Origin: Actinomycetota bacterium
GTDB lineage: Bacteria; Actinomycetota; Acidimicrobiia; IMCC26256; PALSA-610
DNA: 64,000 nt
Direction: 5' to 3'
Assembly (NCBI GenBank): GCA_052390615.1
Contig: JBQTGT010000007.1
Span: forward strand, 73,614 to 137,613
Part shown: in pieces, positions 9,875-64,000 of the stretch
Numbering within the stretch: position 1 is the first letter of the stretch
Layout: each line of letters opens with the position of its first letter
The notes under the pieces: model-generated
The model's input: only the letters and a program-made list of their open reading frames with translations
What the model was told of the DNA's origin: nothing
The model's database searches: none
Program-made: the position numbers and the translations under genes

Positions 9875-10246
9875 CTATTCCGGGGAGTGGCAGCACGCTT
9901 CGACGTTGTTGCCGTCGGGATCGCGAACGAACGCGCCGTAGTAGTCCGGGTGGTACTCGGGCCACACCCGCGGCTCGTGCAACACTTCGGCGTCCGCGCC
10001 AACCGCGGCATCGAAGAAGGCTCGCACTGTCGCGCGATCAGACGCCGCGAAACATATGTGCGACTCGCGAAAGCCGTCGCCGGAACTGAAGGTGCCGATC
10101 CAGAAGTCGGGTTTCGGGGCGATGCCATATCCGATCGCGACACCGAAGTCCATCAGGCGCTTGCCGCCGAGCGGTGCGAGCACCGTGTCGTAGAACGCGG
10201 CGCTGGCGTCCATGTCGGCACACTGGATCCCAAGGTGATCGATCAC
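9875..10246 (-). CDS. VOC/glyoxalase-family protein
   Basis: The sequence VIDHLGIQCADMDASAAFY...GAFVRDPDGNNVE is typical of the glyoxalase/bleomycin-resistance fold. GTG at 10246 has GGAGG 9 nt upstream. The longer track ORF extending to 10351 is Arg/Ser-rich. Confidence 0.8.
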   Translation of the reverse strand: MIDHLGIQCADMDASAAFYDTVLAPLGGKRLMDFGVAIGYGIAPKPDFWIGTFSSGDGFRESHICFAASDRATVRAFFDAAVGADAEVLHEPRVWPEYHPDYYGAFVRDPDGNNVEACCHSPE

Positions 10247-10292
10247 GACCTTCCACCTCCCCTTTCGTCCGTTCGAGCGTCGTGCACGAATG

Positions 10293-21576: not shown

Positions 21577-21578
21577 CG

Positions 21579-32973: not shown

Positions 32974-33043
32974 TCCCGGCACGCACCCGCGAGCAGGCAC
33001 GGGACCCGGTTCGCGGCAGCCACCCGCCTACACTTCGGGGGCC

Positions 33044-47138: not shown

Positions 47139-47234
47139 CGCTTGCCTCCCGGGGGGACAGTACCGCCAGTCGTGGCCCCGGAGCCGCCTCACAGTCAGGG
47201 AGCCCGGCGCTCGACCAGCTAAGTTCAACGGACG

Positions 47235-47957
47235 ATGTATCAGGGGTTGTCCATCGCGGCAGTGATTCCGGTCTTGGACGAGGAAAGCAAGATCGGCACC
47301 GTGCTGTCGCGCATTCCACGCGACATCGTCGACGAAATCGTCGTCGTCGACGACGGATCGACCGATTCCTCGCCGAAGATCGCGGTCGAGAGTGGGGCAA
47401 CGCTGATCACGATGCCGCGGACCGTCGGCGTCGGCGCCGCGCTCCGCCGCGGGTTCGAACACGTCTGCGAGAAGGGTCACGATGTCACGGTGGTGATCGC
47501 GGGAAACAACAAGGACAGTCCCGAAGAGATCCCACTGTTGCTGGACCCCATCGTCCGCGGTGACGCAGATTTCGTTCAGGGTTCGCGCTGGCTCACGCGG
47601 AACGCCCAGCTCGGACCGATGCCTCTGTACCGGCGCATCGCAACCCGCATTCATCCCTTGATCTTCTCGCTCGCGGCGCGCCGGCGAACGACAGATTCGA
47701 CGAACGGGTTCCGAGCCTTCTCGAACCGGATCCTTGCGGACGAAACGATCTCGCTCGATCAGGCGTGGCTCGATGGTTACGAGCTGGAGCCGTACCTGTA
47801 CCTGCGCGTCGCTCGCAGCAGCTACAAGACCATCGAGGTTCCAGTGACGAAGACGTACCCGCCGAAGCACCTCGGCCAGACGAAGATGCCACCCGTCGTG
47901 GGCTGGTGGGAGATACTGCGCCCCGTGGTACTGGTCGGACTCGGTCTGAAGCGATGA
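47235..47957 (+). CDS. GT2 glycosyltransferase with a C-terminal membrane anchor (polyprenyl-phosphate sugar synthase candidate)
   Basis: AAVIPVLDEESKIG, VVVDDGSTDSS, and a C-terminal hydrophobic segment PPVVGWWEILRPVVLVGLGL. Divergent from the GT-C-like gene. Confidence 0.85.
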   Translation: MYQGLSIAAVIPVLDEESKIGTVLSRIPRDIVDEIVVVDDGSTDSSPKIAVESGATLITMPRTVGVGAALRRGFEHVCEKGHDVTVVIAGNNKDSPEEIPLLLDPIVRGDADFVQGSRWLTRNAQLGPMPLYRRIATRIHPLIFSLAARRRTTDSTNGFRAFSNRILADETISLDQAWLDGYELEPYLYLRVARSSYKTIEVPVTKTYPPKHLGQTKMPPVVGWWEILRPVVLVGLGLKR

Positions 47958-51159: not shown

Positions 51160-52368
51160 GTGCGCCTGCTCTACGTCGTCCACCGCTATCACTCGGAGAT
51201 ACCCGGCGGGGCCGAGATCGCGTGCCGGCTCTTCGCCACCCAAATGGCCGGGCGCGGACACGACGTCGCAGTGGTCACCAGCTGCGCTCGCGACTACGTC
51301 GACTGGGCCGATGTCTATCCGGCCGGCACCACCAACGAGGACGGCGTCCTGGTGCACCGCTTGCCGGTTTCGGCGCCGCGTGACATTCAACGCTTCAACC
51401 GGATGTGCGGCTCGGTGCGACCGGACGCCGAGATAGTGCCGTGGGACCGGCAGCAGCAGTGGCTCGTCGAGCAGGGCCCGCACCTTCCCGACCTGGCGCG
51501 CTGGCTCGACGCCAACTACGGCCGCTTCGACGCGGTCGTCGTGTTCACCTACCTGTACTACCCGGCGTCCGTCGCGCTCCGGACACTCGCGGGGCGCGTG
51601 CCGATCGTCTTCCACCCGTGCGCCCACGAAGAATGGCCGCTCCATCTCTCGTTGTACGACACGCCGTTCCGCATAGCCGACGCGTTCGCCTACTTCACAC
51701 CAGAAGAGGAACAGCTCGTGCGCGAGCGCTTCGACGATCGCGTTCTGGGCGAGGTGCTGGGTATCGGGCTCGACATCGGAGCCGCGACGCAGTTCGACGA
51801 CGGCGGGGCGCGCTTCCGAGCCGAAACCAGGATCGGCGATCGTCCCTACATCACCTATGTCGGGCGCCTCGACCGGAGCAAAGGCGTCGCCGAGCTCGCA
51901 CAATGGTTCCGCATCTTTCGAGAACGCACCGGACGCGACCTCGTGTTGACGTTGCTGGGCGACGAGGTGCACCCGATCGAACGTGCGGACGACGTTGTGG
52001 TCACCGGCCCCGTGTCGGAGGAGCTACGACAGTCCGCGGTTTCGGGCGCGGCCTGCCTCGTGCACCCCTCGTACTTCGAAAGCTTCTCGATGGTGCTGAC
52101 CGAGACCTGGGCTCTCGCCCGGCCGGTGCTCGTGCAGGGACGGTGCGACGTGCTCGCGGGTCAGGCGCGACGCGCGGGTGGGGGTGTTGCGTACCGCGGC
52201 TACGCCGAATTCGAAGCAGCCCTCGAACGCGTTCTCGACGACGAAGCACTCGCCACGATGTTCGGACAACGCGGCCACGACTATGTTCGCCGCAACTACG
52301 ACTGGGACGTGTTGGCGCCCCGTTACGAGCGGTTGCTCGAGAAGGCGTGCTCCGCTAACGGTACGTGA
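51160..52368 (+). CDS. Glycosyltransferase GT4, type-a paralog 1
   Basis: N-terminus RLLYVVHRYHSEIPGGAEIACRLFA..RGHDVAVVTSCARDYVDWA, shared with the genes at 54195 and 59086. C-terminal PSYFESFSMVLTE. Confidence 0.85.
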   Translation: MRLLYVVHRYHSEIPGGAEIACRLFATQMAGRGHDVAVVTSCARDYVDWADVYPAGTTNEDGVLVHRLPVSAPRDIQRFNRMCGSVRPDAEIVPWDRQQQWLVEQGPHLPDLARWLDANYGRFDAVVVFTYLYYPASVALRTLAGRVPIVFHPCAHEEWPLHLSLYDTPFRIADAFAYFTPEEEQLVRERFDDRVLGEVLGIGLDIGAATQFDDGGARFRAETRIGDRPYITYVGRLDRSKGVAELAQWFRIFRERTGRDLVLTLLGDEVHPIERADDVVVTGPVSEELRQSAVSGAACLVHPSYFESFSMVLTETWALARPVLVQGRCDVLAGQARRAGGGVAYRGYAEFEAALERVLDDEALATMFGQRGHDYVRRNYDWDVLAPRYERLLEKACSANGT

Positions 52369-54205
52369 GCGACGCCGCGTCGATCAGCGACGAGGACAGG
52401 CAGAGGTCGACGATGACACCGTCGCCGGCGCGTACGGTCTCCACCACCGCGCCGCCGGGCAGCACCTCCAGGGGCGCATCCAGTGCGTCGAGAAACGCGC
52501 GGGCGGAGAACTCGGGGATCGCTTCGCGATCGGGCACGAGGACGCGCAGCCGGGCCGAACCGACGATGGGCGGCGCGGGGGCGGGATCGACCGGTGGCGC
52601 GACCCCGTCGGGACGTGCCAACACGACGAAACCGCCGCGCTCGAGGTCGAGTGGCGGTTGGTAGGTCGACGACGACAGCTCGCAGCGACCAGCACCGGCG
52701 ATCGGCCCTGTCAACGTCGCAGGATCGGCGACGGTCGTGACGGTCGTCGCGCCGTTGGCGCGCAGGTACAACGGGATGAGCCACGCCCGATAGTCGGCCG
52801 CCACGAGCGTGCTGCCGTCGGGCAGCGCGTCGTAGAGTCCGTCGCGGGCTGCGCGTTCGACCGCCTCTTGGCGTATCCCTTCGGGCCGGCCGTAGGCGTT
52901 CACGACCCATTGGTTGTTGCGGGCGGTGGTCGCAACCAAACCGCCGGCCGTAAGACCGACGACGACTGCGAACGCGACGCGCGACGGACGTACGTACCGA
53001 GTCTGGAGGCGCGAGAACGCGGTCACCGCGGTCAACAGCAGTGCGATACCGACAAGCGCGAATCCGAACGACTGGAAGTAGACCCCGAGGTACGCCAACC
53101 CGAAGCCCAACTCGTCCTGCCAACGTTGAGCGATCGCGACGGTGACGACTGGCGCGATCCACAAGGTCAGACCGAACAGTGCGAGCACCAACCGGTCGCG
53201 CGCGGCCGCCGACCGACAGCGCGTCACCGCGACGGCGACCGCCGCTCCGACAACGAGCGCCAAGAAGAGTGATCCCAGCTCGTGACCCGAGAACAAGTCG
53301 CCGAGCGACGGCTCGGAGCGAAAAGCCGGCACATTGCCCGGAACGGCGCCGACGAACTGATAGATGGACGCCGGCAACATCTCCGACAGGTGAAAACGGG
53401 TCGTGTACGCCGGCTCCAATGCTTCCGCTTCGTCGCGCAACGACAACACGACGCCGAACAGCACCACGGTCGGCACGACAACGATCGCAGTGCTGACGAC
53501 CCGGCGCCGCACGTCGCCGGCCACGAGCCAGAAGCTCAGAACTGCGGCCGGCGCGACGAAGAACGCGATTTCGTACGAGGTCAATGCGAAAAACCACAGC
53601 AGCGCCGCGATCGGAAGCAACCACCAATCGCCTCGCACCTGCCAGCAGTTGAGCGCGAGCACCATGCCGAGCACCGCCGCGAGGACGACGGGCAGAAGTC
53701 CGCTGAGCGACAGCACCGCGTCGTGGAACAACCGGAACTGGATCGAGCTGAGCGCGAGGGCCACGGCGATGAATGCGGGCGGCCACTGTCGGGACACCTG
53801 ACGGATCAGTAGTGCGAGTAACGCGAGATCCAAGGCGACGACGAGGATCTGGAACGCCTCGTAGTGCGCGCGATCGTCGAGGAACCACCACACCGCGGAG
53901 CCTTCGGCGATGGCGCCCGGGAAGAACCGCCCCTGCTTCTCCATCCAATCACGCGTGTAGAAGCGCATGTGTTCCCACACCGACGAGTCCGTCTCTCGCA
54001 GGCTGTCCCGGAACAGCACGTTGATCGCGTCGTCACCGATGAAGCCGCCGTGGCGGAGTGGCCCAATCACCGCCATGAGTGCGATCACCAGGACGACGAC
54101 GCCGATGACCGGCGGGAGCCAACGCACGAGGTCGGGGAAACCCGGGCGCGCCGTCGTGACCTCGAGCTCGTCGGTCTCGGGCGTGGCTTCGTCCTCAATC
54201 AGCAT
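52355..54205 (-). CDS. Large polytopic membrane protein (~616 aa) with a C-terminal soluble domain; GT-C-like candidate
   Basis: ATG at 54205 overlaps the upstream GT4 stop by 11 nt. About 12 TM helices plus a ~170-aa tail. Confidence 0.6.
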   Translation of the reverse strand: MLIEDEATPETDELEVTTARPGFPDLVRWLPPVIGVVVLVIALMAVIGPLRHGGFIGDDAINVLFRDSLRETDSSVWEHMRFYTRDWMEKQGRFFPGAIAEGSAVWWFLDDRAHYEAFQILVVALDLALLALLIRQVSRQWPPAFIAVALALSSIQFRLFHDAVLSLSGLLPVVLAAVLGMVLALNCWQVRGDWWLLPIAALLWFFALTSYEIAFFVAPAAVLSFWLVAGDVRRRVVSTAIVVVPTVVLFGVVLSLRDEAEALEPAYTTRFHLSEMLPASIYQFVGAVPGNVPAFRSEPSLGDLFSGHELGSLFLALVVGAAVAVAVTRCRSAAARDRLVLALFGLTLWIAPVVTVAIAQRWQDELGFGLAYLGVYFQSFGFALVGIALLLTAVTAFSRLQTRYVRPSRVAFAVVVGLTAGGLVATTARNNQWVVNAYGRPEGIRQEAVERAARDGLYDALPDGSTLVAADYRAWLIPLYLRANGATTVTTVADPATLTGPIAGAGRCELSSSTYQPPLDLERGGFVVLARPDGVAPPVDPAPAPPIVGSARLRVLVPDREAIPEFSARAFLDALDAPLEVLPGGAVVETVRAGDGVIVDLCLSSSLIDAASLTYR

Positions 54206-55397
54206 GGCGTCGACCCGACCGCACACCGGCGAGCAACTCCTCGTACCGTTCCATCACCGCGTCCCAGCGGTAGTGCCGCTCGACGTACCGACGGCCGGCC
54301 GCACCCAGGGCGGGCCCGAGCTGTTCATCCTCTTCGAGCATCTCGAGTGCGACCTCGAAATCGGCGAACGAGGAGAACGGGATCGCACCACCCGAACGCA
54401 ATGCTTGGCCGCGCAGCACCGCGCAGTGTCCTTGCACTAGAGCGGGCTTGTGTTGCGCCCAGGCTTCAGTGAGTGCCATCGAGAAGCTCTCGAAGTATGA
54501 CGGCTGCGCCAGCGCGAGGCAGCCGTCGATCGCGTCGCGCGTGAGTTGGTCGTCGAGGAAACCGAGGATCCGGATGTCGTCGCTCTCGGGCATCGGCATG
54601 ACCGGATCACCGATGTAGACCAGCGCGAGATCAGTATTGTGACGCTTTCGGTACCAGCGAAGGAACAGGTGGAGCTCGTCCGCGCCTTTTCCGGTGTCGA
54701 GCCGGCCGAGGTACAGCAGGTACGGCCGATCACCGAGACCGAACCGGCGTCGGAACCGCTGGCCGTCACCCGTCGCGTCGAGGTCGGTGCCGATTCCGGT
54801 GATGACCGACGGACGCACGAGACCGAAGCGCTCGTGGACGAGGTCGGCCTCCTCCTCCGTCAGGAACCCGAAGGCGTCCGCGGACGCGAACACGGAATCG
54901 AACGCGCACATGTAGAGCGGCGGCTCATGGTGCGCGGTGGGGTGCAGCACGACGGGCCGGATGCGCGCCGCAACGGAGATACCGCTGGTCGTGCTGGTAT
55001 AGAGGTACGTGAAGAACACGCACAGGTCGTAGCTCGACGTGTTCTCTGTGAGCCATGGCACGAGATCGGGCATGCACGGGCCGATCATTGTCAGCCACGA
55101 ACGCTCGACGGGAGGCGCGACGGACAGACCCGAACGCAGCGCGCGTTGGTCGAGAGGCCCGAACAACCCTGGGTCGCGCGGCGCCTCGACCGACAATCGG
55201 TGCAACGTGACTCCGCCTTCGACGGTCGTTCCCGGCGGGAGCGCGTTGGCCCAGTCGACATAGCTACGCGCACAGCTGGTGAGGACGTCGACCTCGTGTC
55301 CCCGAGCGACCAGATGCTCGGCGAACTGCCGGCACATCGTCTCGGACCCACCGGAGATGTCGGTTCCGTACCGATGGACGACGAAGAGCAGCTTCAC
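54195..55397 (-). CDS. Glycosyltransferase GT4, type-a paralog 2
   Basis: GTGA overlap with the upstream GT4. N-terminus KLLFVVHRYGTDISGGSETMCRQFA..RGHEVDVLTSCARSYVDWA. Confidence 0.85.
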   Translation of the reverse strand: MKLLFVVHRYGTDISGGSETMCRQFAEHLVARGHEVDVLTSCARSYVDWANALPPGTTVEGGVTLHRLSVEAPRDPGLFGPLDQRALRSGLSVAPPVERSWLTMIGPCMPDLVPWLTENTSSYDLCVFFTYLYTSTTSGISVAARIRPVVLHPTAHHEPPLYMCAFDSVFASADAFGFLTEEEADLVHERFGLVRPSVITGIGTDLDATGDGQRFRRRFGLGDRPYLLYLGRLDTGKGADELHLFLRWYRKRHNTDLALVYIGDPVMPMPESDDIRILGFLDDQLTRDAIDGCLALAQPSYFESFSMALTEAWAQHKPALVQGHCAVLRGQALRSGGAIPFSSFADFEVALEMLEEDEQLGPALGAAGRRYVERHYRWDAVMERYEELLAGVRSGRRHAD

Positions 55398-56461
55398 GAG
55401 AGCACGGGCGCGACGGCCCGCAGGAAATCTCGGATGCACTCGGCGTCGTCGAAGTGGCGGCTCCGCTCGAGCGCGCGCTCACGCAACAATGCCTGAATGG
55501 CAGGTTCACGCAAACACAACGCGATCGCTTCGGCGAACGCCAGCGGGCCAGCGCTCTCCGGCAGCAAGAAACCACCGGTGCCGACCGTCTCCGGCAGCGC
55601 CGCGACCGCGCGCGCGATCACCGGCACGCCGAACGACATCGCCTCGATTGCGGGAACACACAAGCCTTCGTGATGGCTCATCGTCACCAACAGGTCGGCG
55701 CGCTGATACAGCGCGGCCAGCTCCGGCTCCGGCACTCGCCCCCGCACCTCGACCGCGGGTAGCACGAGTTCACGGGCGAACTCGCCGAGCGCATGCGCGT
55801 ACGCGGAGTGATGGTTCGGGCCGACGAAGAGGAACCGCACGTCGCTGCGGTGATAGGTGGTCACGATGTGCGCGGCGATGATGAGCTCGTGCAGTCCCTT
55901 GTGCGGCAACATCTGCGCGACGCAGAGCACGAGCGGGCGAGGGTCGGCCGTGAGTACCTTGGCTTCGGCCTCGACGTCAAGACGGTGGAGCCGCAGGACG
56001 CCGAGCGGCGGCGTGACGACGATCGGATCGGGGAAGCCCGCGTCGATCAGGTCCTTGGCGTTGCACGCGCTGTCAGCCATCGCGAGCGCCGTGCGACCGC
56101 GCAACACCTCGAGGTCGCGGCGGCCCATGTCGAGGAGGTACGCGAAACCTGGTTGCGACGACTCGAAGAACGCCGCGGGCGTGATGTTGTGGTACTGGAG
56201 AACGAGTTGGGCCTTGGTATCGAGCAAGAACCGCACGAGCTTCTGTTCGCCGATACTCAAGTGGTACAGCACGGTCGCGTTCCGCAACGTCGCCGGCTCG
56301 ACGTCGTCGATCAGCTCGACCCGGTCGGCGAGGTCGACGTGCCTCGCCGCCGCGAACACTCGACTCTCACCCAGGCGTCCGAGCACCTCTTGATACCGCA
56401 ACGTGATCTCGGTGATCGCGTCGCCGGGGTAGGCGTACACGATCGCCTGGTGCAAACTCAT
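55394..56461 (-). CDS. Glycosyltransferase GT4 (divergent N-terminal domain)
   Basis: ATGA overlap with the coiled-coil methyltransferase gene. C-terminal SHHEGLCVPAIEAMSFGVPVI signature. Confidence 0.8.
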   Translation of the reverse strand: MSLHQAIVYAYPGDAITEITLRYQEVLGRLGESRVFAAARHVDLADRVELIDDVEPATLRNATVLYHLSIGEQKLVRFLLDTKAQLVLQYHNITPAAFFESSQPGFAYLLDMGRRDLEVLRGRTALAMADSACNAKDLIDAGFPDPIVVTPPLGVLRLHRLDVEAEAKVLTADPRPLVLCVAQMLPHKGLHELIIAAHIVTTYHRSDVRFLFVGPNHHSAYAHALGEFARELVLPAVEVRGRVPEPELAALYQRADLLVTMSHHEGLCVPAIEAMSFGVPVIARAVAALPETVGTGGFLLPESAGPLAFAEAIALCLREPAIQALLRERALERSRHFDDAECIRDFLRAVAPVLS

Positions 56462-57621
56462 CGCACCGCGATCACTGCGTAGTCGCACGCCGCGAACACG
56501 ACCTCGTTGAGACGCAAGACATTGCGCGTCGCAAGGTTGTCATCGGGATCGGTTTCGAGCAGGGTCGGTTCGGGCAGGTGCGATCGGTACTCGATCTCGA
56601 CTTCGCCAAACCCGGCCATGTCACACACCATCGCGAGATACTCTGGATCGACGAGTCGAACATGAGTCGCGTCGAGCCAGAACGATGACGCGTGCACGAA
56701 CAGGGACCGAGGGTTCGGCGTCTCGAGCACCAGCAGCCCGCCCGGGCGGAGGACGCGGCGGACTTCGTCGATGAGGTGCAGCAGCACTTCACGTTCCATG
56801 TGCTCGATGACTTGGAGTGAGACGAATCCGCCGAGCTCGCCTGCCGGGATCGCCGCGAGCGTGTCGAAGCCGTCGCCGCAGACGACCGGCAGGCCTTCCT
56901 TTTGTGCCACGACCGCGATGTTCGGATCGAGCTCGACACCGGCTGCGACGACTTCGCGAGCAGCCAGCAGGTGCAGGAAATCGCCCCGCCCGCACCCGAA
57001 GTCGAGAACCGGATCCTTGCCGATGAGCCGATCGGCCAGCGCCTCGTACTTGTACATGATGTCGTCGCGAGCGCCGCGAAATTTTTCCAGCGCGATCGGG
57101 TCGAACCACGACGGGTCCTCGCCGAACGAATCACGGCCAAGGAACCGCAGTCGAGTTTCGACGCGACGCGTCAGCTTCTCGAGCCGCGATTGGAGCGCGT
57201 CGACACGCGCGTGCAGGTTCTCGATCGTCCGCGACAGCGAGAGATCGGTCGACGCGAGTTCGTGCACGACGCCCTTCACTGCGTCGGCGTACTCCTCGAC
57301 GAGATGAAGCGCGCCCTGGACCTGGCGAGCAGTGATACCACCGATCGCGCGATGTGCGATCTGGCCCCCCGGCACCTTGGATTCGATAGTGATCCGCGAG
57401 CGGGGAAACCAGCCGGTCGACACGAGCGGCGAGATGACCTGATCAGCCAGACGCGGGCGGGGCGTGTCGGCGGTGACACGGAATTCCTGCACCCGCTCGA
57501 AGTGCTCGGCGAGATCGCGCTCGAGGTCGGGTGGGTAGGCCGCGGTCTGTCGGCGAGCCGCCACCGCCGCTTCGATCTGCTCGAGAAGCTGCGAGATCTC
57601 GATCGACTGGGGCTGATCCAC
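56458..57621 (-). CDS. Coiled-coil domain fused to a class I SAM-dependent methyltransferase (WbdD-like glycan chain-terminator candidate)
   Basis: GTG start after GAGGGAG. The N-terminal ~170 aa carry the shared motif (SKVPGGQIAHRAIGGITARQVQG) and heptad-like helices. The C-terminal half has SAM motif I VLDFGCGRGDF. Confidence 0.8.
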   Translation of the reverse strand: MDQPQSIEISQLLEQIEAAVAARRQTAAYPPDLERDLAEHFERVQEFRVTADTPRPRLADQVISPLVSTGWFPRSRITIESKVPGGQIAHRAIGGITARQVQGALHLVEEYADAVKGVVHELASTDLSLSRTIENLHARVDALQSRLEKLTRRVETRLRFLGRDSFGEDPSWFDPIALEKFRGARDDIMYKYEALADRLIGKDPVLDFGCGRGDFLHLLAAREVVAAGVELDPNIAVVAQKEGLPVVCGDGFDTLAAIPAGELGGFVSLQVIEHMEREVLLHLIDEVRRVLRPGGLLVLETPNPRSLFVHASSFWLDATHVRLVDPEYLAMVCDMAGFGEVEIEYRSHLPEPTLLETDPDDNLATRNVLRLNEVVFAACDYAVIAVR

Positions 57622-57709
57622 GTCTCCCTCGAAAATGCCGGGAATCCGGCGAAATCTACTGGACAGGATGCACCGCTACCGGACGACGCCCCTCAGGGAG
57701 GGCGACGGC

Positions 57710-58990
57710 TCAGGCGCCGGACTCCTCGACCTGCATCTCCTTTCCGGCGAAGCGAATGTCCACGGGAAACGAGACGCTCCCGGCGGCGCGACCAGGATTC
57801 ATCACGGCGAACGACCATTGTTGTTCACGCCAGTCATAGACGGTGCCTTCGTCACGAGTTTGCGCCGCGAGCGTCACGAGATATGTGCCATCGAGCAGCG
57901 GAACACGATCGAACTCGAACGCGACCTCGCCCGCCGCGCCGCCGTCGATTGTCGGCACGCGCGTCTCAAGGATCTTGGTGTTCGTCCCGAACAGGTGATT
58001 GCCGTCTTCGTCGTGGATCGCGATGCCGAAGAGCAGATCGTCGGTGGACTCGCGCGCCGCGTACGACACGCGTATGGTCAGCGCCTCGTCGGGAAGTAGG
58101 TACGACCGTCCGACGAGGCGACCGGGATGGTCGAACGCGACGTCGGCGATGTGCACTCGACCGGTCGCCGACTGGGCCATGCGCTGGCCGTGCGACAACT
58201 CGACCCCCACTGCTGCCGACGTCGTGGCACTCGACGGGGGCGCGTCGTCGTCGTAGCTCTCGCCCATCTGGAGATGCTCTCGGAACGACCGCACGGCCTC
58301 GCCGGGCGGACCGTCGACAACCATGCGACCGTGGTCGAGGACGATCGCACGATCGCAGATGCGGCGAACGAGGTCGGCCGCGTGCGTCACGAACAGGATC
58401 GTGCGGCCCTCGCGCTGGAAACGAGCGACGCGCTCGAGGCACTTCCGCTGGAATGCTTCGTCGCCGACGGCGAGCACTTCGTCGACGAGCAAGATGTCGG
58501 GATCGACATTGACCGCCACCGCGAACCCCAAGCGGACGTACATGCCCGACGAGTAGTGACGGACCTGCATATCGATGAAGCGCTCGAGCTCGGCAAACTC
58601 GACGATCTCGTCGAAGATTCTCTCGGTCTCCTTCTTCGACAAGCCGAGAATCGACGCGTTCAAGAAGATGTTCTCGCGCCCTGTCAGTTCCGGGTGGAAG
58701 CCGGCCCCCAACTCGAGCAACGCCGCCAACCGGCCCCGGGTGACGATCTCGCCGTGCGTGGGCTGGAGGATGCCGGCGATGCACTTGAGCAGCGTCGACT
58801 TGCCCGACCCGTTGTGGCCGAGCAGCCCGACGGTTGCGCCCTCCGCGACTTCGAATTCGCAGTCGCGCAGCGCCCAGAAGTCCTCGTACGGCACGCGACC
58901 GAAGTGGATGACGCGCTCTTTCAGCGACGAGTAGCGCTCGTGCGAGAGACGAAACCGCTTCGAGACGCCCCGAACCTCGATGGCCGCCAT
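57710..58990 (-). CDS. wzt: ABC-transporter ATP-binding protein Wzt with a C-terminal glycan-terminus-binding beta-sandwich domain
   Basis: Walker A GHNGSGKST, signature YSSGMYVRLGFA, Walker B ILLVDE, then a ~170-aa extra domain (VHIADVAFDH...GTYLVTLAA). ATG at 58990. Confidence 0.9.
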   Translation of the reverse strand: MAAIEVRGVSKRFRLSHERYSSLKERVIHFGRVPYEDFWALRDCEFEVAEGATVGLLGHNGSGKSTLLKCIAGILQPTHGEIVTRGRLAALLELGAGFHPELTGRENIFLNASILGLSKKETERIFDEIVEFAELERFIDMQVRHYSSGMYVRLGFAVAVNVDPDILLVDEVLAVGDEAFQRKCLERVARFQREGRTILFVTHAADLVRRICDRAIVLDHGRMVVDGPPGEAVRSFREHLQMGESYDDDAPPSSATTSAAVGVELSHGQRMAQSATGRVHIADVAFDHPGRLVGRSYLLPDEALTIRVSYAARESTDDLLFGIAIHDEDGNHLFGTNTKILETRVPTIDGGAAGEVAFEFDRVPLLDGTYLVTLAAQTRDEGTVYDWREQQWSFAVMNPGRAAGSVSFPVDIRFAGKEMQVEESGA

Positions 58991-59016
58991 GGCGGTTACT
59001 GCTCCTGCGCGAGATT

Positions 59017-59050
59017 GGGCCCGATGGGTCGAAGATAGTCGATCGGGCCC
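59017..59050 (-). terminator. Intercistronic hairpin between GT4 (59086-60279) and wzt
   Basis: GGGCCCGAT (59017-59025) and ATCGGGCCC (59042-59050) form a 9-bp stem with a 16-nt loop. No U-tract. Confidence 0.25.
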
Positions 59051-59085
59051 GCTGTTCCGGGGTCGTGCGCGCCGGTGACGGCCCG

Positions 59086-60279
59086 TCAGCGAGCGGCGAC
59101 GACGGCGTCCAACAACTGTTCGTAGCGGTCGAGGACGACGTCCCACGAGTACGCCTGCTCCACATACCTACCGCCGGCCGCGCCCATCGCGTCAGCTCGC
59201 GCGGGGTCACGCGCCAGCGCGTCGACCGCATCGCCGAAGTCATCGGGGCTCAGGTAGGCCACTCCTCCACCGCTGCGGTCGACATGACCGAGCGTGACCT
59301 CGCACCGCCGTTGCACGAGAACTGGTCGCGCTTTCGCGAACGCCTCGGCGACGACCATCGAGAAGGACTCGAAATGCGAGGGTTGCACGAGCGCGAGCGC
59401 GCCTGCGAGCGCGCTGTCGCGTATCGTCGCGTCGACGAAGCCGGTGACCACGATGTCGTCTCGACGAGGAACGTCGAGAAGCGGCGCGCCCAAGAGCACG
59501 AGTTGCATGTCACCACCTCGCGCGGCCTTGTACTGCGTGAAGAAGTGGAGCAACTCCGCCGCGCCTTTCCCGGCGTCGACGCGACCCACATAGACCAGGT
59601 AGGGATGATGTCCCACTGCCGGGAACTCCTGCCGGAACTGTGCATCGTCGGCGTGGCGCACGTCGACACCAATACCGACGACGGACCCGACAGGCTCGAT
59701 CCGGAAGCGCCGGCGGATCAGCGCGCGTTCCTCGGGCGTCGACAACGCGAATGCGTCCGGCAACCGAAATACCTCGTCGAACGGGACAAGGTGTAGCGGC
59801 GCTTCGTCGTGCACCGTGGGATGCAGCACCGTCGGCACGAGTCCCGCGGCCGCGCGCAGGCCCGCCCACGTCGGCCAGTAGAGGTAAGTGAAGAAGATGA
59901 CGCAGTCGAACCCGCGGCCGTGAGCAGCGAGCCACGGCGGCAGATCCGGGACGACCGGACCCTGACGTTCGAACCATTCGTATTGAGCGGCGACGGACCG
60001 AGGCGCTCGGCTGTCGAGCAGCTCGTTCGTGAGCGCGTCGAACGAGGCCTTGTCCCGCTTGGCCGCGACCGGCAGGCGATGCACGGCGACACCGGCCAAG
60101 TCGGACGTGCCGGGCTGGAACTCGTTGGCCCAATCGACGTTGGAGCTCGCGCACGTGGTCGCGACCTCGACCTCGTGGCCGCGCGCCGACAATCGTTGCG
60201 CGAACTCCAAACAGTGCTGTTCCGCGCCACCGGCGACGGTCTCGCCGTACCGCTGGACGACGTAGCACAGCCGCATCAT
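59086..60279 (-). CDS. Glycosyltransferase GT4, type-a paralog 3
   Basis: ATGA overlap with the upstream coiled-coil gene. N-terminus RLCYVVQRYGETVAGGAEQHCLEFA..RGHEVEVATTCASSNVDWA. Confidence 0.85.
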   Translation of the reverse strand: MMRLCYVVQRYGETVAGGAEQHCLEFAQRLSARGHEVEVATTCASSNVDWANEFQPGTSDLAGVAVHRLPVAAKRDKASFDALTNELLDSRAPRSVAAQYEWFERQGPVVPDLPPWLAAHGRGFDCVIFFTYLYWPTWAGLRAAAGLVPTVLHPTVHDEAPLHLVPFDEVFRLPDAFALSTPEERALIRRRFRIEPVGSVVGIGVDVRHADDAQFRQEFPAVGHHPYLVYVGRVDAGKGAAELLHFFTQYKAARGGDMQLVLLGAPLLDVPRRDDIVVTGFVDATIRDSALAGALALVQPSHFESFSMVVAEAFAKARPVLVQRRCEVTLGHVDRSGGGVAYLSPDDFGDAVDALARDPARADAMGAAGGRYVEQAYSWDVVLDRYEQLLDAVVAAR

Positions 60280-60758
60280 CCGTCAGGGAGTCGGGAGCGC
60301 ACGCGTTGCTCGAGATCATCGATGCGGCCGCGCATCTCCGTGATAGTGCGCCGCTGCTCGGCGATTCGCGTCTGCAGGTCGTCGAGTTGTTCGACGACGC
60401 CAGTGCCGAACTCACGACTCCACGTGGCCATCAACTCGACGACGTTCTCGAGCACACGATGGACGCCGTGCGCGTATTCCTGGGACTGCGCGAGCACGCC
60501 TTGCACCTGGCGAACGACTGTCTTCGCCACGAGCCGATGCACGACCGAACCGACGGGACGGCTGCTGGTCAGGTCGATGCGTTGCGCGTTGTACTCGAAT
60601 CGCGACAGTGCGTCGACCGCGTCCTCGAGCGCGGCGTAGACCGCCGGCGACAGCAACGGCGGATCGTCGACGCGCGGCATACCCTCCGCGCGACGCGCCG
60701 CGACCTGCGCACCGAGCCCGCCGAGCTCGTCGACTTGCGGCGACTCCGGTCCGCCCAT
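60276..60758 (-). CDS. Small coiled-coil protein, second stand-alone paralog of the methyltransferase N-terminal domain
   Basis: 160 aa. Motif TSSRPVGSVVHRLVAKTVVRQVQG, then helical heptads (QLDDLQTRIAEQRRTITEMRGRIDDLEQRV). Confidence 0.65.
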   Translation of the reverse strand: MGGPESPQVDELGGLGAQVAARRAEGMPRVDDPPLLSPAVYAALEDAVDALSRFEYNAQRIDLTSSRPVGSVVHRLVAKTVVRQVQGVLAQSQEYAHGVHRVLENVVELMATWSREFGTGVVEQLDDLQTRIAEQRRTITEMRGRIDDLEQRVRSRLPDG

Positions 60759-60779
60759 GCGCCAAAATGTACTGGAGTC

Positions 60780-63050
60780 CTACGGCCGCACCGCCATGTC
60801 GACCGCGTGCCGACCGAGCGTCAGACCGGGCTGGCTTCCGTGGAACTTCGCGTCGCCGAACGAGAACACTCCGCCGTCGGAGGAAAGGACGTAGTAGCCG
60901 TTGCCGGTCAGCGACGGGCGCAGCTGGACGCCGGCCGGCGCGCGGCACAGACCGGTCCCGGGGATGCTCCCGAAGAAGGGGACGCCGAAGCTGAACACGC
61001 CGCCGTCGAGGCCGACGAGCCAGTAGCCGCCGGCGTTGCTAGTCCCCATCGAGATCACCGGCGCGTTCAGCTTCGTGCCACCGGTCGAACCGTAGAAGCG
61101 CGCGTCGCCGAAGCTGAACACGCCGCCGTCGGACGCGAGCATCCAGTAGCCGAGGCCGGTCGGCGTCTGCGCCATCGAGATGACCGGCGCGTTCAGACGT
61201 TGGCCACCCATCGAGCCCCAGAAGCGCGCGTCGCCGAAGCTGAAGATGCCGCCGTCGCGGCCGAGCAACCAGTACCCGCCATTGCCCGGCGTCGGCGCCA
61301 TCCCGATGATCGGCGCGTTCAGCGGCTGGCCTTCCATCGAGCCGTGCGAGCGCGCGTCTCCGAAGGTGAAGACCCGTCCCTGGCTGGTCAGGATGTAGTA
61401 GCCGTTCCCGGTCGGCGACACCTGGAGCGCGACCGCGGTCTCGCCCGGTCGCAGCGACCCGGCGACGCTGCCGAAGAACGGGGCGCCCCCGAATGAGAAC
61501 AGCCCGCCGTCCGCGCCGAGGAACCAATAACCGCGGGGCGCGGACGCGTCGGAAGCAGCGGCGGGCGGGTTGACGGCGCGACGGCACATGCCTGGTCCGA
61601 GGAGATTGCCGCCACTCTTCGGCGCGCCGTAGTGACGCGCGTCCTTGCGGAACATCGGCCACGGTGGCGTTCGTCCGGGCGGCGCGATGTTGTACGCCTG
61701 GATCGTTGTTGTGTTGTTCGGCGTGTTGAAGCCGGAAACGATCAGCTTCCAGCCGTGCGGGCCGAAATCGCCAACCGCGCCGGCCGCTTCGAAACTGGTC
61801 CACGTGTTGAGCGCGGCGATCTCTCCGCCGGTCGGTCCGTCGAGGACGAAGAATCCCCAGTTGTTTCCGACGCCCACGTCGTTGTCGCCATCGCCGTCCA
61901 TGTCGGCGATGATCGGCGACTGGACGCCACCACCGGGACCGGTGTTGAAGCGCAGCCCGGACTGCCAGAGGAGCTGGCCGTTCCCGCGAATGACGCGCAG
62001 CAAGCCGTCGTGACTGCCGGCGACCACGTCGACCACACCATCACCGTCGACGTCACCCAAGGCCGGTGCGGGCATCGTCGAGCCGCCGGTCGCGAACGGG
62101 AACCCGGGCTGGTTCGAGCCGTCCTCGATGTTGAACGCCCAGATCTTCTTGCCGTCGCCGCGGTTGTAGAAGTGGCCGGCGCCGGTGACCACTTCCATCG
62201 TCCCGTCGCCGTCGATGTCGCCGATGGCGGGGCTGGAGAAGAACGTGTCGTCGATGCGGCGCTTCCACCGCTCGGTGACTCTGCCGTCGTTCCAGTCGAG
62301 CGCGCGGAACTCACCACCGGAGTGGTCGATGTATCCCCCGATGAACTGGTCCGAGCCGATGAAGATCTCCATCCGGCCGTCGTCGTCGACGTCGTAGAGC
62401 GCCGGAGAGCTCCACGTCGAGTCCTCGACGTTGATCGGGAAGCCGGACAGCTCGTTGCAGTTGCGGTCGATCGCGTGGACGTGGAGGTCCCACGCGCCGA
62501 ACACGATGTCGGTCATGCCGTCGCCGTCGACGTCGCCGAGCGACGGTGACGAGTACACGCCGTTGTCGTTGGGCTGATAGTTCAGCGCCTCGAACCGACA
62601 CTTGACCGAACCGTCGCGGCGGAACACGATCACGCCGCCACGCTCGCGACGCCACGTCGAGCCCGCGCCGACGATCACTTCGTTGGCGCCGTCCGCGTCG
62701 ATGTCTCCGACGGCGGGCGAACCATCGATCGGAACCGCGAGCCCGGGACGCACCGACGCCGGCTGCGGCCAGCCGGGCAAGTTGTTGCCAGTGCTGGCAT
62801 CGAGCACGCGCACGTAGCCGTCCTGGTGGCCGTGCACGATGTCGTTCACACCGTCGCCATTGACGTCGGCGATCGTCGGCGACGAGCTGCGGTTCCAACC
62901 GCCGTAGGTGTGACTCCAAGCGAGCTGCGGCGCGGTGCCGGCGGCGACAGGGGTCGCGGCCACCATCGGCAGCGCGGGCGTCAGGAGTGCGATCAGGGCG
63001 GCAGCGGTACGGAAGCGCACGAAGACCTCGAGGAACGTCGGCGGGAGCAA
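60780..63050 (-). CDS. Secreted protein: seven FG-GAP/VCBS (integrin-alpha-like) repeats followed by seven GYW/DGGVF repeats
   Basis: Signal-like RTAAALIALLTPALPMVAATPVAAG. Seven Ca-binding-type loops (DVNGDGVND, DIDADGANE, DVDGDGMTD, DVDDDGRME, DIDGDGTME, DVDGDGVVD, DMDGDGDND). The C-terminal 253 aa are the repeat domain. The exact start is uncertain. Confidence 0.85.
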   Translation of the reverse strand: MLPPTFLEVFVRFRTAAALIALLTPALPMVAATPVAAGTAPQLAWSHTYGGWNRSSSPTIADVNGDGVNDIVHGHQDGYVRVLDASTGNNLPGWPQPASVRPGLAVPIDGSPAVGDIDADGANEVIVGAGSTWRRERGGVIVFRRDGSVKCRFEALNYQPNDNGVYSSPSLGDVDGDGMTDIVFGAWDLHVHAIDRNCNELSGFPINVEDSTWSSPALYDVDDDGRMEIFIGSDQFIGGYIDHSGGEFRALDWNDGRVTERWKRRIDDTFFSSPAIGDIDGDGTMEVVTGAGHFYNRGDGKKIWAFNIEDGSNQPGFPFATGGSTMPAPALGDVDGDGVVDVVAGSHDGLLRVIRGNGQLLWQSGLRFNTGPGGGVQSPIIADMDGDGDNDVGVGNNWGFFVLDGPTGGEIAALNTWTSFEAAGAVGDFGPHGWKLIVSGFNTPNNTTTIQAYNIAPPGRTPPWPMFRKDARHYGAPKSGGNLLGPGMCRRAVNPPAAASDASAPRGYWFLGADGGLFSFGGAPFFGSVAGSLRPGETAVALQVSPTGNGYYILTSQGRVFTFGDARSHGSMEGQPLNAPIIGMAPTPGNGGYWLLGRDGGIFSFGDARFWGSMGGQRLNAPVISMAQTPTGLGYWMLASDGGVFSFGDARFYGSTGGTKLNAPVISMGTSNAGGYWLVGLDGGVFSFGVPFFGSIPGTGLCRAPAGVQLRPSLTGNGYYVLSSDGGVFSFGDAKFHGSQPGLTLGRHAVDMAVRP
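60783..61541 (-). repeat. Coding tandem repeat, about seven copies of the ~40-aa GYW/DGGVF unit
   Basis: Read directly in the translation of the C-terminal 253 residues. Confidence 0.8.
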
Positions 63051-63303
63051 GTCCTGTATCGGCAGCCCAGCGGTACCGGTGTAGCAGCCGTCCCGACCCC
63101 GACCGGCGCGGTCAGACGCCCAGCCGACGCCCGGTCCGACTGTGATCGCTCTCTAGACTCCCGCCGTGTCCGCCAGAAGCTCATCGCTGCGTCACGATGT
63201 CCGCTCCGCGCTCGCCCGCGTCGCCGGACCTCGAGGCCGGGCGCTCTACCGCCGCGTGCGCGGGCGCACCCGGACGACGAACCCAGATCGGACGATCGCA
63301 CCA

Positions 63304-64000
63304 ATGGCGGCTCGCGTCCCGCCGGTCGTCGTGCACGACGAAACCGGCGCGCACATCGCCCCCGAACCGTCGCTCACCGCCCCACGATTCTTGTGGCCGA
63401 GCTATCCGCCGTCCGGTTACCTCGGCCAGCTCGACGACGGCTACCAGGCGACCCTGCGCAGCGAACGCTCGTACATCACCCGCGCCGACTGCGACTTCTA
63501 CCACACGTCAGAGCTGCGTGACGGCACCGTCGCACGCGGACCGTGGGACCTGCGCGGCCACGAAGCCGAGTATCTCGGCGGTGTCGAGGTGGGCGGACTG
63601 CGGGTCCTCGAGCTCGGACCCGCAACGGGTCACTTGAGCTTCTGGATGGAACAACAGAACGCCGATGTCGTGGCCTTCGACGTCGGGTACGACCGCATGA
63701 TCGATCTGATGGTCTACGGCCGCGAGGACCACCGCGCGCTCAAGATGGACCACGTCGGCCTCATCGGCGGCGTCCAGAACTCCTGGTGGTACCTGCACCG
63801 CGACAAGGAATCGCGCGTGCGCAAGGTGTACGGCAACATCTACGACCTTCCCGGCGACCTCGGCACGTTCGACATGAGCATCTTCTGCGCCATCTTGTTG
63901 CACCTGCGCGACCCGTTCACCGCGCTCGAACAGGCGGCGCGGCGCACCCGCGACGCCATCGTCGTCACCGAAGCGGTCGACCACAAGATGGCTTCGGATG
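63304..64000 (+). CDS. Class I SAM-dependent methyltransferase, 3'-truncated by the window end (absent from the ORF track because it has no stop in the window)
   Basis: My own translation from ATG 63304 gives MAARVPPVVVHDETGAH...WDLRGHEAEYLGGVEVGGLRVLELGPATGHLSFWME...DMSIFCAILLHLRDPF. It has a motif-I-like VLELGPATG and G/C-rich third positions, and stays open to position 64000. The antisense ORF 63508-63984 is rejected. Confidence 0.6.
   Translation, partial: MAARVPPVVVHDETGAHIAPEPSLTAPRFLWPSYPPSGYLGQLDDGYQATLRSERSYITRADCDFYHTSELRDGTVARGPWDLRGHEAEYLGGVEVGGLRVLELGPATGHLSFWMEQQNADVVAFDVGYDRMIDLMVYGREDHRALKMDHVGLIGGVQNSWWYLHRDKESRVRKVYGNIYDLPGDLGTFDMSIFCAILLHLRDPFTALEQAARRTRDAIVVTEAVDHKMASD

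Follow-up and report, generated by a model that had tools for sequence, protein, structure and literature searches.

A candidate cap-writing methyltransferase with an N-terminal helical stalk, encoded next to a cap-reading type of Wzt in an actinobacterial glycan locus

Background

The closest described systems are those in which a terminator caps a growing glycan and the cap is then read by an ABC transporter. In WbdD, the catalytic domain is N-terminal and is followed by a coiled coil and by a C-terminal region that binds the membrane and WbdA. WbdD of Escherichia coli O8 and Klebsiella pneumoniae O5 makes a methyl cap, and WbdD of O9a and O3 combines a kinase with a methyltransferase. To our knowledge, what is understood of this cap-and-export mode of length control comes almost entirely from a small number of enterobacterial O antigens, in which the terminator always forms the N-terminal part of a long coiled-coil protein; we know of no such capping system characterised in uncultured Acidimicrobiia or other Actinomycetota.

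It is well established that a coiled-coil protein with terminating activity typifies the kind of ABC-transporter-dependent glycan assembly that is controlled by a cap (PMC11231755). Wzt proteins that bear a carbohydrate-binding domain (CBD) are exporters of capped chains (PMC6379404), and the CBD of Aquifex aeolicus Wzt binds 3-O-methyl-Man/Rha caps (PMC9445017). A Gram-positive S-layer glycan is capped with 2-O-methyl by WsaE (PMC2943079). Insertion of a transposon into the methyltransferase gene of the Pseudomonas syringae wzm-wzt-MTase-wbdA operon (TET) results in rough LPS (PMC7820976), which fits an export-licensing cap.

Here we describe a methyltransferase (MTase) gene of an Actinomycetota bacterium, denoted the target, that lies next to such a wzt. 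All coordinates refer to the window, that is, the whole stretch of 64,000 nucleotides that was analysed (Table 1).

Results

The gene and its operon

The target open reading frame starts with GTG. Its GC content at codon positions 1, 2 and 3 is 0.74, 0.41 and 0.79, respectively, and even along the gene, as expected of a coding sequence; its N-terminus coincides with the start point of the aligned orthologues. NCBI holds an identical protein titled 'MAG: class I SAM-dependent methyltransferase [Actinomycetota bacterium]' (P0001), and the best match in a GTDB scan with the target protein is 41% identical. The product is predicted, from the sequence and the AF2 model, to be a soluble two-part protein that consists of a helical stalk and a class I SAM methyltransferase likely to be active. 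Pfam, NCBIfam and the AF2 model reveal no kinase domain, a TM scan no hydrophobic segment, and Pfam and AF2 no sequence C-terminal of the MTase domain. The original prediction, a conserved N-terminal segment with a coiled coil followed by a class I MTase and no kinase, is thus borne out by a conserved motif, by heptads and by a match to Methyltransf_23.

The gene order is wzt, an 88-nt gap, the MTase gene, GT364 (ATGA overlap) and GT414 (GTGA overlap). The same-strand position downstream of a wzt with an extra C-terminal domain had also been predicted correctly, and Pfam identifies this domain as Wzt_C. No terminator-like hairpin was found in the 88-nt gap. The membrane protein that ends the co-directional block matched no Pfam or NCBIfam family and has an orthologue in one of the related loci (L001). 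The locus contains at least three further methyltransferase genes, at 39997-40935, at 40967-42202 and from about 63300 to the end of the window. A neighbouring gene has the NCBI locus tag ACT4OX_02955. Among the features of cap-dependent ABC-transporter assembly, a Wzt with a CBD is present; a wzm beside wzt is not, and none was detected anywhere in the 64-kb window by Pfam on plausible ORFs (including ABC2_membrane), a TM scan or phmmer with the Wzm proteins of relatives. A wzm could be located on another part of the 156-kb source contig.

Table 1. Features of the glycan locus, in the order of their window coordinates
Feature	Coordinates	Strand	Basis
Second stand-alone N-domain protein, 158 aa	50683..51159	+	P0124, NCBI 'hypothetical protein'; stop TGA abuts GT402 GTG
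GT402, GT4 glycosyltransferase, paralogue of GT414 and GT397	51160..52368	+	Pfam
Polytopic membrane protein, 623 aa, about 9 TM segments, last in co-directional block	52355..54226	-	TM scan
GT414, GT4 glycosyltransferase, paralogue of GT397 and GT402	54195..55397	-	Pfam; GTG overlaps GT364 stop
GT364, GT4-type glycosyltransferase	55394..56461	-	Pfam Glycos_transf_1, E 3.8e-24; ATG overlaps MTase stop
Target gene (N-terminal stalk module and C-terminal SAM methyltransferase, 387 aa)	56458..57621	-	ORF/translation, coding statistics, NCBI homologues
Class I SAM-dependent methyltransferase domain, 3DLI-like, aa 175-387	56461..57099	-	Pfam, PDB search, AF2, Foldseek
N-terminal module, aa 1-165 (two short helices, conserved loop motif, long helix)	57127..57621	-	Alignments A3/A4
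Canonical a/d heptad coiled-coil segment, aa ~127-158	57148..57243	-	Heptad scan
Signature motif S81-x2-P84-G-G86-x3-H90-R-x7-R99-Q-x-Q, base of long helix	57316..57381	-	Alignment
wzt, ABC-transporter ATPase, 426 aa from ATG 58990	57710..58990	-	Pfam ABC_tran and Wzt_C; Shine-Dalgarno
Wzt_C domain (aa 327-451 of long ORF)	about 57794-58168	-	Pfam, E 1.4e-22
GT397, GT4 glycosyltransferase, immediately 5' of wzt	59086..60279	-	Pfam
Stand-alone N-domain protein, 160 aa	60276..60758	-	Paralogy; stop overlaps GT397 start (ATGA)

The methyltransferase domain

The Methyltransf_23 match covers aa 192-338 of the target (E 1.4e-14), with motif I, VLDFGCGRGDF, at aa 205-215 (VLDFGCGRG, 56983-57009). All family invariants (R182, D207, G209, G211, R212, G213, E273, H274, E300, N303, D317 and H320) are retained. 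The PDB entry 3dli is matched across aa 178-385 with 30% identity (phmmer E 1.3e-25), and Foldseek, applied to the target model, which has pLDDT >90 in the MTase domain, aligns it to 3dli_A with E 1.6e-20 and TMt 0.83. The domain accordingly combines full-length homology to 3DLI-like methyltransferases of the Pfam Methyltransf_23 clan with intact SAM-binding residues.

The proposed identity of the protein as WbdD minus its kinase half had to be abandoned. The similarity to WbdD is generic: phmmer matches to 4azs and 4azw (E 1.5e-3 to 2e-3) are confined to the SAM-binding core, the best match is 3DLI, and the domain order is reversed. WbdD is also absent from the best 50 Foldseek matches of the target model, where 3DLI stands alone. 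A hidden N-terminal kinase of the kind found in ORF6 of Klebsiella O7 is likewise ruled out: the N-terminal 170 aa consist only of helices, match no family, and suit a kinase neither in size nor in class.

Acidobacteriota encode relatives of the MTase domain, 42-45% identical, near rplI, a PBP and regulators, where glycan genes are absent, and on a Roseobacter plasmid the partners of the MTase-GT pair are a giant DUF4214 protein and a type I secretion system (T1SS). Because of these contexts, the MTase fold alone does not imply capping. The automatic name 'O-antigen chain-terminating methyltransferase' was rejected as evidence, given that equally close relatives occupy non-glycan contexts. A search for named or characterised homologues by tblastn against plasmids returned only 'methyltransferase domain-containing protein' entries, and the phrase 'chain-terminating methyltransferase' was not found in a literature search, so that the JGI and NCBI names of the relatives are to be regarded as automatic annotations.

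The N-terminal stalk module

The N-terminal 165 aa of the target match no Pfam or NCBIfam family, and a PDB profile search for a solved homologue gave only coiled-coil and helical-bundle entries, none significant. In a 16-sequence alignment of the module, S81, P84, G86, H90 and R99 are invariant and the rest of the signature motif is nearly so. The heptad scan reaches a score of 0.8-0.9 only at aa ~127-158, which amounts to 4-5 canonical heptads over ~30 residues. The AF2 model shows nothing but helices in aa 1-170, with low confidence across the N-terminal half, and the model of the paralogue encoded at 60276..60758 contains one continuous 89-residue helix (aa 68-156). The long helix of the stalk (aa 86-161) comprises 75-90 residues, and the whole stalk would measure ~11-13 nm if straight.

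The paralogy of the target N-domain with the product of this small ORF is apparent from BLASTP (E 6e-9). An exhaustive profile search of 1.84e9 proteins found 639 representatives of the N-domain, always N-terminal (at least 13 small proteins were listed by a word-indexed profile search), most of them from uncultured Acidimicrobiia or from further Actinomycetota. The target shows all the traits of this family, namely, the motif, the long helix, the N-terminal position and a gene upstream of a GT4. A stand-alone N-domain gene lies directly 5' of one or more GT4 genes in all six distinct contexts that are annotated; L093/L094, a seventh, is a truncated locus with no annotation and stays outside this count. 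In two loci (L090 and L091), a bare N-domain gene precedes a pair of GT364-like and GT414-like genes without a fused MTase. These searches and alignments define a domain family not described before, which comes either bare or fused to the 3DLI-like MTase and which probably tethers the MTase to a GT4 polymerase.

The adjacent Wzt

The best PDB match of the Wzt of the window is A. aeolicus Wzt (E 1e-64), and its C-terminal domain (residues ~275-426) matches the A. aeolicus CBD (8dky/6o14) with E 1e-4. The pocket positions are I323, A324, N337, T373, A375, Q377, D380 and W387. Five of the eight contact residues of the A. aeolicus CBD are kept (I, N, T, A and W), including the methyl-pocket T, A and W, a conservation that is marginal against the 31% background identity (binomial p about 0.07). 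All 15 linked CBDs share the pocket Asn, and a Wzt_C homologue is present in 14 of the 15 true Wzt proteins encoded near family members. The presence of a CBD in Wzt implies that a terminal signal exists, and the likeness to the A. aeolicus CBD would fit a direct O-methyl cap better than a methyl-phosphate.

Conservation of the locus

Full-length orthologues of the target occupy 18 distinct loci (L001 and L003-L019), some on short contigs. The MTase-GT364-GT414 set is found in all of them; in L018 the contig ends within the third gene. The GT364 orthologue is always downstream and directly follows the MTase gene in 17 loci (the exception is L015); the GT414 orthologue is the third gene, with E 1e-115 to 1e-142, where the contig extends that far. 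A wzt occurs within 10 kb in five of the 18 loci and is adjacent in none. When either wzm or wzt is counted, the number within 10 kb rises to eight, including L003 and L008 (both with wzm only) and L014 (a partial wzm at the edge). In three loci (L003, L008 and L015), a second N-domain-MTase paralogue directly follows wzm or wzt.

Beyond these orthologues, wzm, wzt with Wzt_C and the MTase gene are contiguous in at least eight distinct loci from several phyla: Rokubacteria (L022, L034 and L082), Desulfobacterota and one other bacterium (L041, L051 and L052), Azovibrio, a betaproteobacterium (L067), and also L086/L087. Most of these loci have GT364-like and GT414-like genes downstream. In Hasllibacter, a fused ABC exporter takes the place of Wzm/Wzt.

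Discussion

A putative cap-writing terminator and the competing explanations

In its layout and position, the target fits a coiled-coil protein with a putative terminating activity that is encoded beside the polymerising glycosyltransferases, and we lean, by a modest measure, towards the target being a cap-writing terminator of a new architecture. In the mechanism that we propose, GT364, GT414 and their GT4 paralogues, all encoded nearby, would assemble a polyprenol-linked glycan at the cytoplasmic face of the membrane. The stalk module would oligomerise and dock on the GT4 polymerase, so that the MTase is kept at a fixed distance, and might conceivably serve as a ruler. The MTase would then directly O-methylate its presumed substrate, the non-reducing terminal sugar, without a phosphate, whereupon elongation would stop. 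The C-terminal CBD of the adjacent Wzt would read the methylated end and license export via Wzm/Wzt, with the wzm gene located outside the window. The domain layout, the Wzt_C neighbour and the cross-phylum synteny lend support to the capping part of the original prediction; the supposed kinship with WbdD does not stand, and the rarity of a nearby wzt among the closest orthologues speaks against the capping role. The capping role is a well-supported functional prediction, not a new principle.

The most serious competitor, which we nonetheless consider unlikely, is that the MTase decorates internal repeat residues while bound to the GT4 complex, and that termination and export depend on something else or are cap-independent. 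The universal partner of the family is indeed the glycosyltransferase pair rather than wzt, another MTase of the locus could be the capper, and two methyltransferases of the P. aeruginosa CPA locus, PA5457 and PA5459, affect the glycan and are not WbdD-like length regulators (PMC3560663). Against this, the CBD-bearing Wzt implies a terminal signal, the stalked MTase is the only one that repeatedly comes right after wzt across phyla, and the terminators characterised so far in such loci are their coiled-coil proteins (PMC11231755).

It seems decidedly improbable that the MTase-GT-GT set makes a separate product, such as a methylated glycolipid or an oligosaccharide that is cytoplasmic or attached to protein, and that the adjacency of wzt only reflects packing in a glycan island. 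This possibility draws on the closest-orthologue loci, where wzt is never adjacent and is absent from most retrieved flanks (L001, L003 and others), on the Roseobacter plasmid module with its T1SS and DUF4214 protein, on the fused exporter of Hasllibacter, and on a window that has no wzm. It is countered by the eight of 18 loci with wzm or wzt at a distance of no more than 10 kb, by the second N-domain-MTase paralogues directly after wzm or wzt, and by the tight wzm-wzt-MTase contiguity in Gram-negative phyla. That the substrate is not a carbohydrate at all (a protein, lipid or small molecule, with an incidental glycan context), as might be suggested by the lack of an assigned function for 3DLI, the nearest solved structure, and by the large Acidobacteriota subgroup in housekeeping neighbourhoods, is very hard to reconcile with the ATGA translational coupling to a glycosyltransferase gene and the conservation of the triad in 18 of 18 orthologue loci.

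To return to the cap-writing terminator, a bolder version, which we offer as speculation and regard as doubtful, is that the N-module is a hitherto unrecognised, dedicated GT4 docking stalk. The three paralogues in the window, one with the MTase and two bare, would each be translationally coupled to their own GT4, and their long helices would form a mixed coiled-coil bundle that gathers single-module GT4 polymerase subunits and one terminator. Such a bundle would correspond to a WbdD/WbdA or WbbB ruler complex split into modules, at work in a monoderm actinobacterium, and would feed a cap-reading Wzt.

The locus and the domain family of ~640 members suggest an alternative build of the cap-and-export logic, in which a small stalk is either bare or bears an MTase. 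If this is true, the stalk would mark, at the sequence level, terminators and polymerase scaffolds in the wall and surface glycan loci of Gram-positive bacteria, the Wzt of the window would contain a second natural methyl-sugar-reading domain, and glycan chain length could be engineered with a compact, modular system.

Comparison with known systems

The target resembles WbdD in that a SAM methyltransferase and a coiled coil are encoded together with a polymerising GT4 and a cap-reading Wzt; the sequence of events from cap to elongation stop to export licence, as proposed for the target, would also be the same. The differences are substantial. The order of the parts is reversed, with the stalk (aa 1-165) preceding the MTase (aa 175-387), there is neither a kinase nor an amphipathic membrane helix, the heptad region is much shorter, the stalk (~11-13 nm) is shorter than the WbdD ruler, and the polymerase consists of two single-module GT4 proteins. 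The terminators of K. pneumoniae O7 (ORF6) and O4 (ORF7) are similar in that terminator modules are flexibly split among coiled-coil and glycosyltransferase polypeptides (PMC11231755), but in these proteins the catalytic terminator is N-terminal with the coiled coil after it, and O7 has a cryptic kinase.

By gene order, the P. syringae TET operon shares with the locus a wzt with a CBD, a stand-alone SAM methyltransferase named 'wbdD' and a GT4 polymerase, whereas it differs in belonging to the LPS machinery of a Gram-negative bacterium and in having a dual-module WbdA. A Pseudomonas sp. protein (L072) belongs to the MTase family of the target, which therefore occurs in that genus.

The comparison with A. 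aeolicus WzmWzt operates at the level of Wzt, the capping enzyme not being described in the WzmWzt papers: the pocket residues I299, N313, T346, A348 and W362 are conserved in the Wzt of the window, which has A, Q and D in place of L300, H350 and M353. The structural-genomics protein 3DLI from Archaeoglobus fulgidus is a homologue of the full catalytic domain but lacks an N-terminal stalk and an assigned function.

WsaE of Geobacillus stearothermophilus differs in domain layout, with an N-terminal MTase fused to two rhamnosyltransferase domains and no stalk module. The likeness resides in the methyl capping (2-O-methyl-rhamnose), proposed for the target, combined with Wzm/Wzt export in a monoderm, and in the WsaE locus wzm, wzt and the MTase-bearing gene follow one another with overlapping stop and start codons.

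Proposed function

The protein under study joins an N-terminal stalk module (residues 1-165) to a C-terminal SAM methyltransferase, and we are fairly confident that it is a glycan O-methyltransferase that forms a complex with the adjacent pair of GT4 glycosyltransferases (Table). We lean slightly toward the more specific reading that it is a chain terminator built in a new way. In this reading, the stalk module would oligomerize and dock onto the GT4 polymerase, the methyltransferase would O-methylate the non-reducing end of the growing polyprenol-linked glycan, and the resulting cap would halt elongation and be recognized by the carbohydrate-binding domain (CBD) of Wzt. A direct O-methyl cap is favored because there is no kinase at all: as originally predicted, none is detected by Pfam or NCBIfam. 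The terminator reading matches established rules, given that coiled-coil proteins carry terminating activities (PMC11231755) and that capped chains are exported by CBD-bearing Wzt proteins (PMC6379404).

Coordinates of the features discussed (window positions unless a comparison locus from another genome, L, is named)
Feature	Position	Strand
Stalk-methyltransferase gene (target)	56458-57621	-
wzt	57710-58990	-
small160, stand-alone stalk protein, 160 aa	60276-60758	-
small158, stand-alone stalk protein, 158 aa	50683-51159	+
Stand-alone stalk protein, L001	18558-19031	
GT364 (GT4)	55394-56461	-
GT414 (GT4)	54195-55397	-
GT397 (GT4)	59086-60279	-
GT402 (GT4)	51160-52368	+
FG-GAP repeat protein	60780-63050	-
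Polytopic membrane protein, 623 aa	52355-54226	-
Polytopic membrane protein	43237-45561	-
Polytopic membrane protein	45630-47870	-
Further methyltransferase gene	39997-40935	+
Further methyltransferase gene	40967-42202	-
Further methyltransferase gene, leaves window	about 63300-64000	+
UbiA prenyltransferase, FAD_binding_4 oxidase, HAD phosphatase	18451-22151	
Sugar pathway genes	32537-39021	+
Stalk + divergent methyltransferase-like paralog, L003	5589-6557	
Same, L008	3166-4269	
Same, L015	15855-16862	
Same, L017	6465-7610	-
Methyltransferase-domain relatives, L027, L036, L049	around 9400-10700	

The methyltransferase gene and its catalytic half

The window has a high GC content (0.64-0.71), and the target gene shows values of 0.74/0.41/0.79 by codon position, even throughout its length. 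The predicted reading frame holds (GTG start, 387 aa), the N-terminal start residues are the same as in orthologs at 64-69% identity, and an identical protein has been deposited at NCBI (Actinomycetota MAG, 156-kb contig). The assignment to the class I SAM methyltransferases is likewise sound, with Pfam Methyltransf_23 at residues 192-338 and the quoted motif, VLDFGCGRGDF, at residues 205-215. The catalytic half (residues 175-387) is modeled by AF2 with pLDDT >90 and has a full-length homolog in the Archaeoglobus methyltransferase 3DLI (sequence E 1.3e-25; Foldseek E 1.6e-20, TMt 0.83), an enzyme with no assigned function; all remaining fold matches are generic class I methyltransferases. The residues that are >=97% conserved among 86 family members are all kept in the target (R182, D207, G209, G211, R212, G213, G228, E273, H274, E300, N303, D317 and H320), and, judging by the sequence, the methyltransferase is probably active.

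The N-terminal stalk domain

The N-terminal half of the target has no match in Pfam or NCBIfam and is predicted by AF2 to be all-helical; no hydrophobic segment was found in the protein. A conserved segment plus coiled coil had been proposed here; a simple heptad scan yields clean a/d heptads only at residues ~127-156. The segment is a domain family in its own right, with two paralogs in the window, small160 (BLASTP E 6e-9) and small158, and with S81, P84, G86, H90 and R99 invariant in an alignment of 16 sequences. When 1.84 billion representative proteins were searched exhaustively with a profile, 639 proved to be members (368 at E<=1e-10), each with the domain at its N-terminus. Among the best 150 of the 639, 71 are stand-alone (<=250 aa), 67 are fused to the methyltransferase family of the target, and the other 12 (286-349 aa) have a C-terminal extension that gives no direct match to its methyltransferase domain. 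The AF2 model of small160 consists of two short helices followed by one unbroken 89-residue helix (pLDDT 83-97) that, if straight, would make a stalk of roughly 11-13 nm. Against the PDB, the domain profile hits coiled-coil entries only, none significantly. The family is without a Pfam or NCBIfam model, and its members are without an informative name in the sources searched.

Stand-alone stalk proteins (about 160-180 aa) occur in the window, in L001 and in L088-L094, each encoded immediately 5' of a GT4 gene and annotated at the source as 'hypothetical' or not at all. A second class of paralogs (322-381 aa) combines the stalk with a divergent, weakly scoring methyltransferase-like domain; in L003, L008 and L015, such a gene lies directly 3' of wzm or wzt. 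Within the 251-380-aa length class, many members show no recognizable glycine-rich SAM loop and thus may be pseudo-enzymes.

Gene order in the window

The minus-strand block at 52355-63050 encodes the FG-GAP protein, small160, GT397, Wzt, the target, GT364, GT414 and the 623-aa membrane protein; GT397, GT402 and GT414 are paralogs of one another. At every junction of a stalk-domain gene with a GT gene, or of two GT genes, the stop codon overlaps or abuts the next start codon (ATGA for small160/GT397 and target/GT364, GTGA for GT364/GT414, and TGAGTG for small158/GT402 on the plus strand).

The remainder of the 24-64 kb region is a large glycan locus. Its three further methyltransferases (one FkbM-type, one Methyltransf_23 with a C-terminal extension, one partial) are alternative methyl sources for the glycan. 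The secreted FG-GAP protein contains in its C-terminal half about six 'GYW..G.DGGvFsFGdA.F.GS' repeats that Pfam does not recognize, and a homolog also lies 5' of wzm-wzt in L011. The three polytopic membrane proteins are 623-774 aa long and have 8-10 predicted TM segments; without significant Pfam or NCBIfam matches, they are candidate GT-C-type transferases, ligases or polymerases; L001 has an ortholog of the 623-aa one. The consecutive UbiA, oxidase and phosphatase genes, a set that also flanks the orthologous locus L003, resemble a decaprenyl-phospho-ribose/arabinose (DprE1-type) donor pathway and suggest extracytoplasmic addition of pentofuranose to the glycan. The run of nucleotidyltransferase, 4,6-dehydratase, DegT-family enzyme, NeuB-family synthase and three-domain TPP enzyme genes looks like a pathway for an unusual sugar, possibly branched-chain or nonulosonic. 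The host is probably a monoderm actinobacterium, in which case the product would be a wall-, lipid- or protein-linked glycan, not an LPS O antigen.

Wzt and its putative cap-reading domain

The same-strand gene 5' of the target encodes, as predicted, a genuine Wzt, in which Pfam recognizes ABC_tran and Wzt_C (E 1.4e-22); its true start is the ATG at 58990, preceded by AGGAG, and no terminator-like hairpin was found in the 88-nt gap before the target. Of its solved relatives, Aquifex aeolicus Wzt scores best (E 1e-64), and the CBD of that protein is the sole solved-structure match of the C-terminal domain (E 1e-4). That CBD binds 3-O-methyl-D-mannose, not mannose, and 3-O-methyl-Man/Rha caps the native A. 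aeolicus O antigen (PMC9445017). Five of the eight CBD contacts, among them three of the four that form the methyl pocket, are identical in the window protein (A. aeolicus to window, numbered from the ATG at 58990: I299 to I323, L300 to A324, N313 to N337, T346 to T373, A348 to A375, H350 to Q377, M353 to D380 and W362 to W387), an enrichment that is suggestive only, because the background identity is 31% (binomial p about 0.07). The contact Asn is invariant in 15/15 CBDs linked to the target family, and most have W or Y at the Trp position; a Wzt_C homolog is present in 14 of the 15 true Wzt proteins encoded near family members. The alternative that survives best, albeit an unlikely one, is that the target methylates internal rather than terminal residues; in its favor, the P. 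aeruginosa CPA methyltransferases behave unlike WbdD (PMC3560663).

The wzt gene is intact, but no wzm was detected in the 64-kb window by Pfam, TM scan or phmmer with Wzm proteins of related loci. In L011-L016, wzm lies directly 5' of wzt, the wzm at the edge of L014 being partial; L003 and L008 show the reverse of the window, wzm with no nearby wzt, so the two transporter genes apparently can be separated in this clade.

Orthologous and distant loci

At least 564 relatives came up when one genome per GTDB species was scanned; 80 loci were kept, and their six-frame ORFs were compared with the window proteins. Full-length orthologs are present in 18 distinct loci (L001, L003-L019), mostly from Acidimicrobiia and other Actinomycetota, with one from Dormibacterota. 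GT364-like and GT414-like genes follow the methyltransferase gene in 18/18, with the qualification that the former is further downstream in L015 and the latter is cut by the contig end in L018. Only five (L011, L012, L013, L015, L016) have a wzt with Wzt_C within 10 kb, and in none is it adjacent.

More distant relatives form contiguous, often overlapping wzm-wzt(Wzt_C)-methyltransferase arrays in Rokubacteria (L022, L034, L082), Thermodesulfobacteriota (L041), Desulfarculia (L052), a further bacterium (L051), Azovibrio (L067) and a metagenome (L086/L087), followed by GT364-like (E about 1e-33) and GT414-like (E about 1e-75) genes except in Azovibrio and the truncated L041 contig. The link of the family to the Wzt CBD is frequent and cross-phylum, not universal; that the product is a separate one, unrelated to Wzt export, we consider improbable.

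Outside the methyltransferase-fused family, stand-alone stalk-domain genes have a GT4 gene next in 6/6 annotated contexts, a count that leaves aside the truncated, unannotated L093/L094. The order small stalk protein, GT364-like, GT414-like in L090 and L091/L092 is that of the target operon with the methyltransferase unfused or absent. Counter-examples to a link with Wzt also occur: on a Roseobacter plasmid, methyltransferase-GT-GT is joined to a type I secretion system, and in Hasllibacter, to a dual-GT4 WbdA-like protein, GDP-mannose genes and a fused ABC exporter. The neighborhoods taken together indicate that the robust partner of the target family is the GT4 polymerase.

About 40 Acidobacteriota/Thermoanaerobaculia proteins, 42-45% identical in the methyltransferase domain, belong to the same group of counter-examples: their neighbors are rplI, a class A PBP, regulators and the like, and glycan genes are absent. 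In L036 and L049, the relative lies just 3' of ribosomal protein L9, near PBP or housekeeping genes, and in L027 amid transporter, PD40 and GGDEF genes. These relatives form a conserved subgroup with an apparently non-glycan function; action of the target itself on a non-carbohydrate substrate is very improbable.

Relation to WbdD and other known systems

JGI and NCBI automatically name relatives of the target 'O-antigen chain-terminating methyltransferase'; a literature search for 'chain-terminating methyltransferase' found no paper using the phrase, and no characterized member of the family was found. The description of the target as a WbdD lacking its kinase half does not hold: in sequence WbdD matches no better than E about 2e-3, by fold it falls outside the top 50 matches, the topology is reversed, and there is neither specific homology nor a membrane- or polymerase-binding C-terminus. 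The target belongs instead to the 3DLI-like methyltransferases and the N-terminal stalk-domain family. The terminator reading is a good testable prediction, with the GT4-associated stalk domain as an additional lead. If it is true, the target is expected to work in a mode similar to that of WbdD(O8). This reading has precedents in the P. syringae wzm-wzt-methyltransferase-wbdA operon, where insertion into the methyltransferase gene results in rough LPS (PMC7820976), and in Gram-positive WsaE, which makes a 2-O-methyl cap (PMC2943079).
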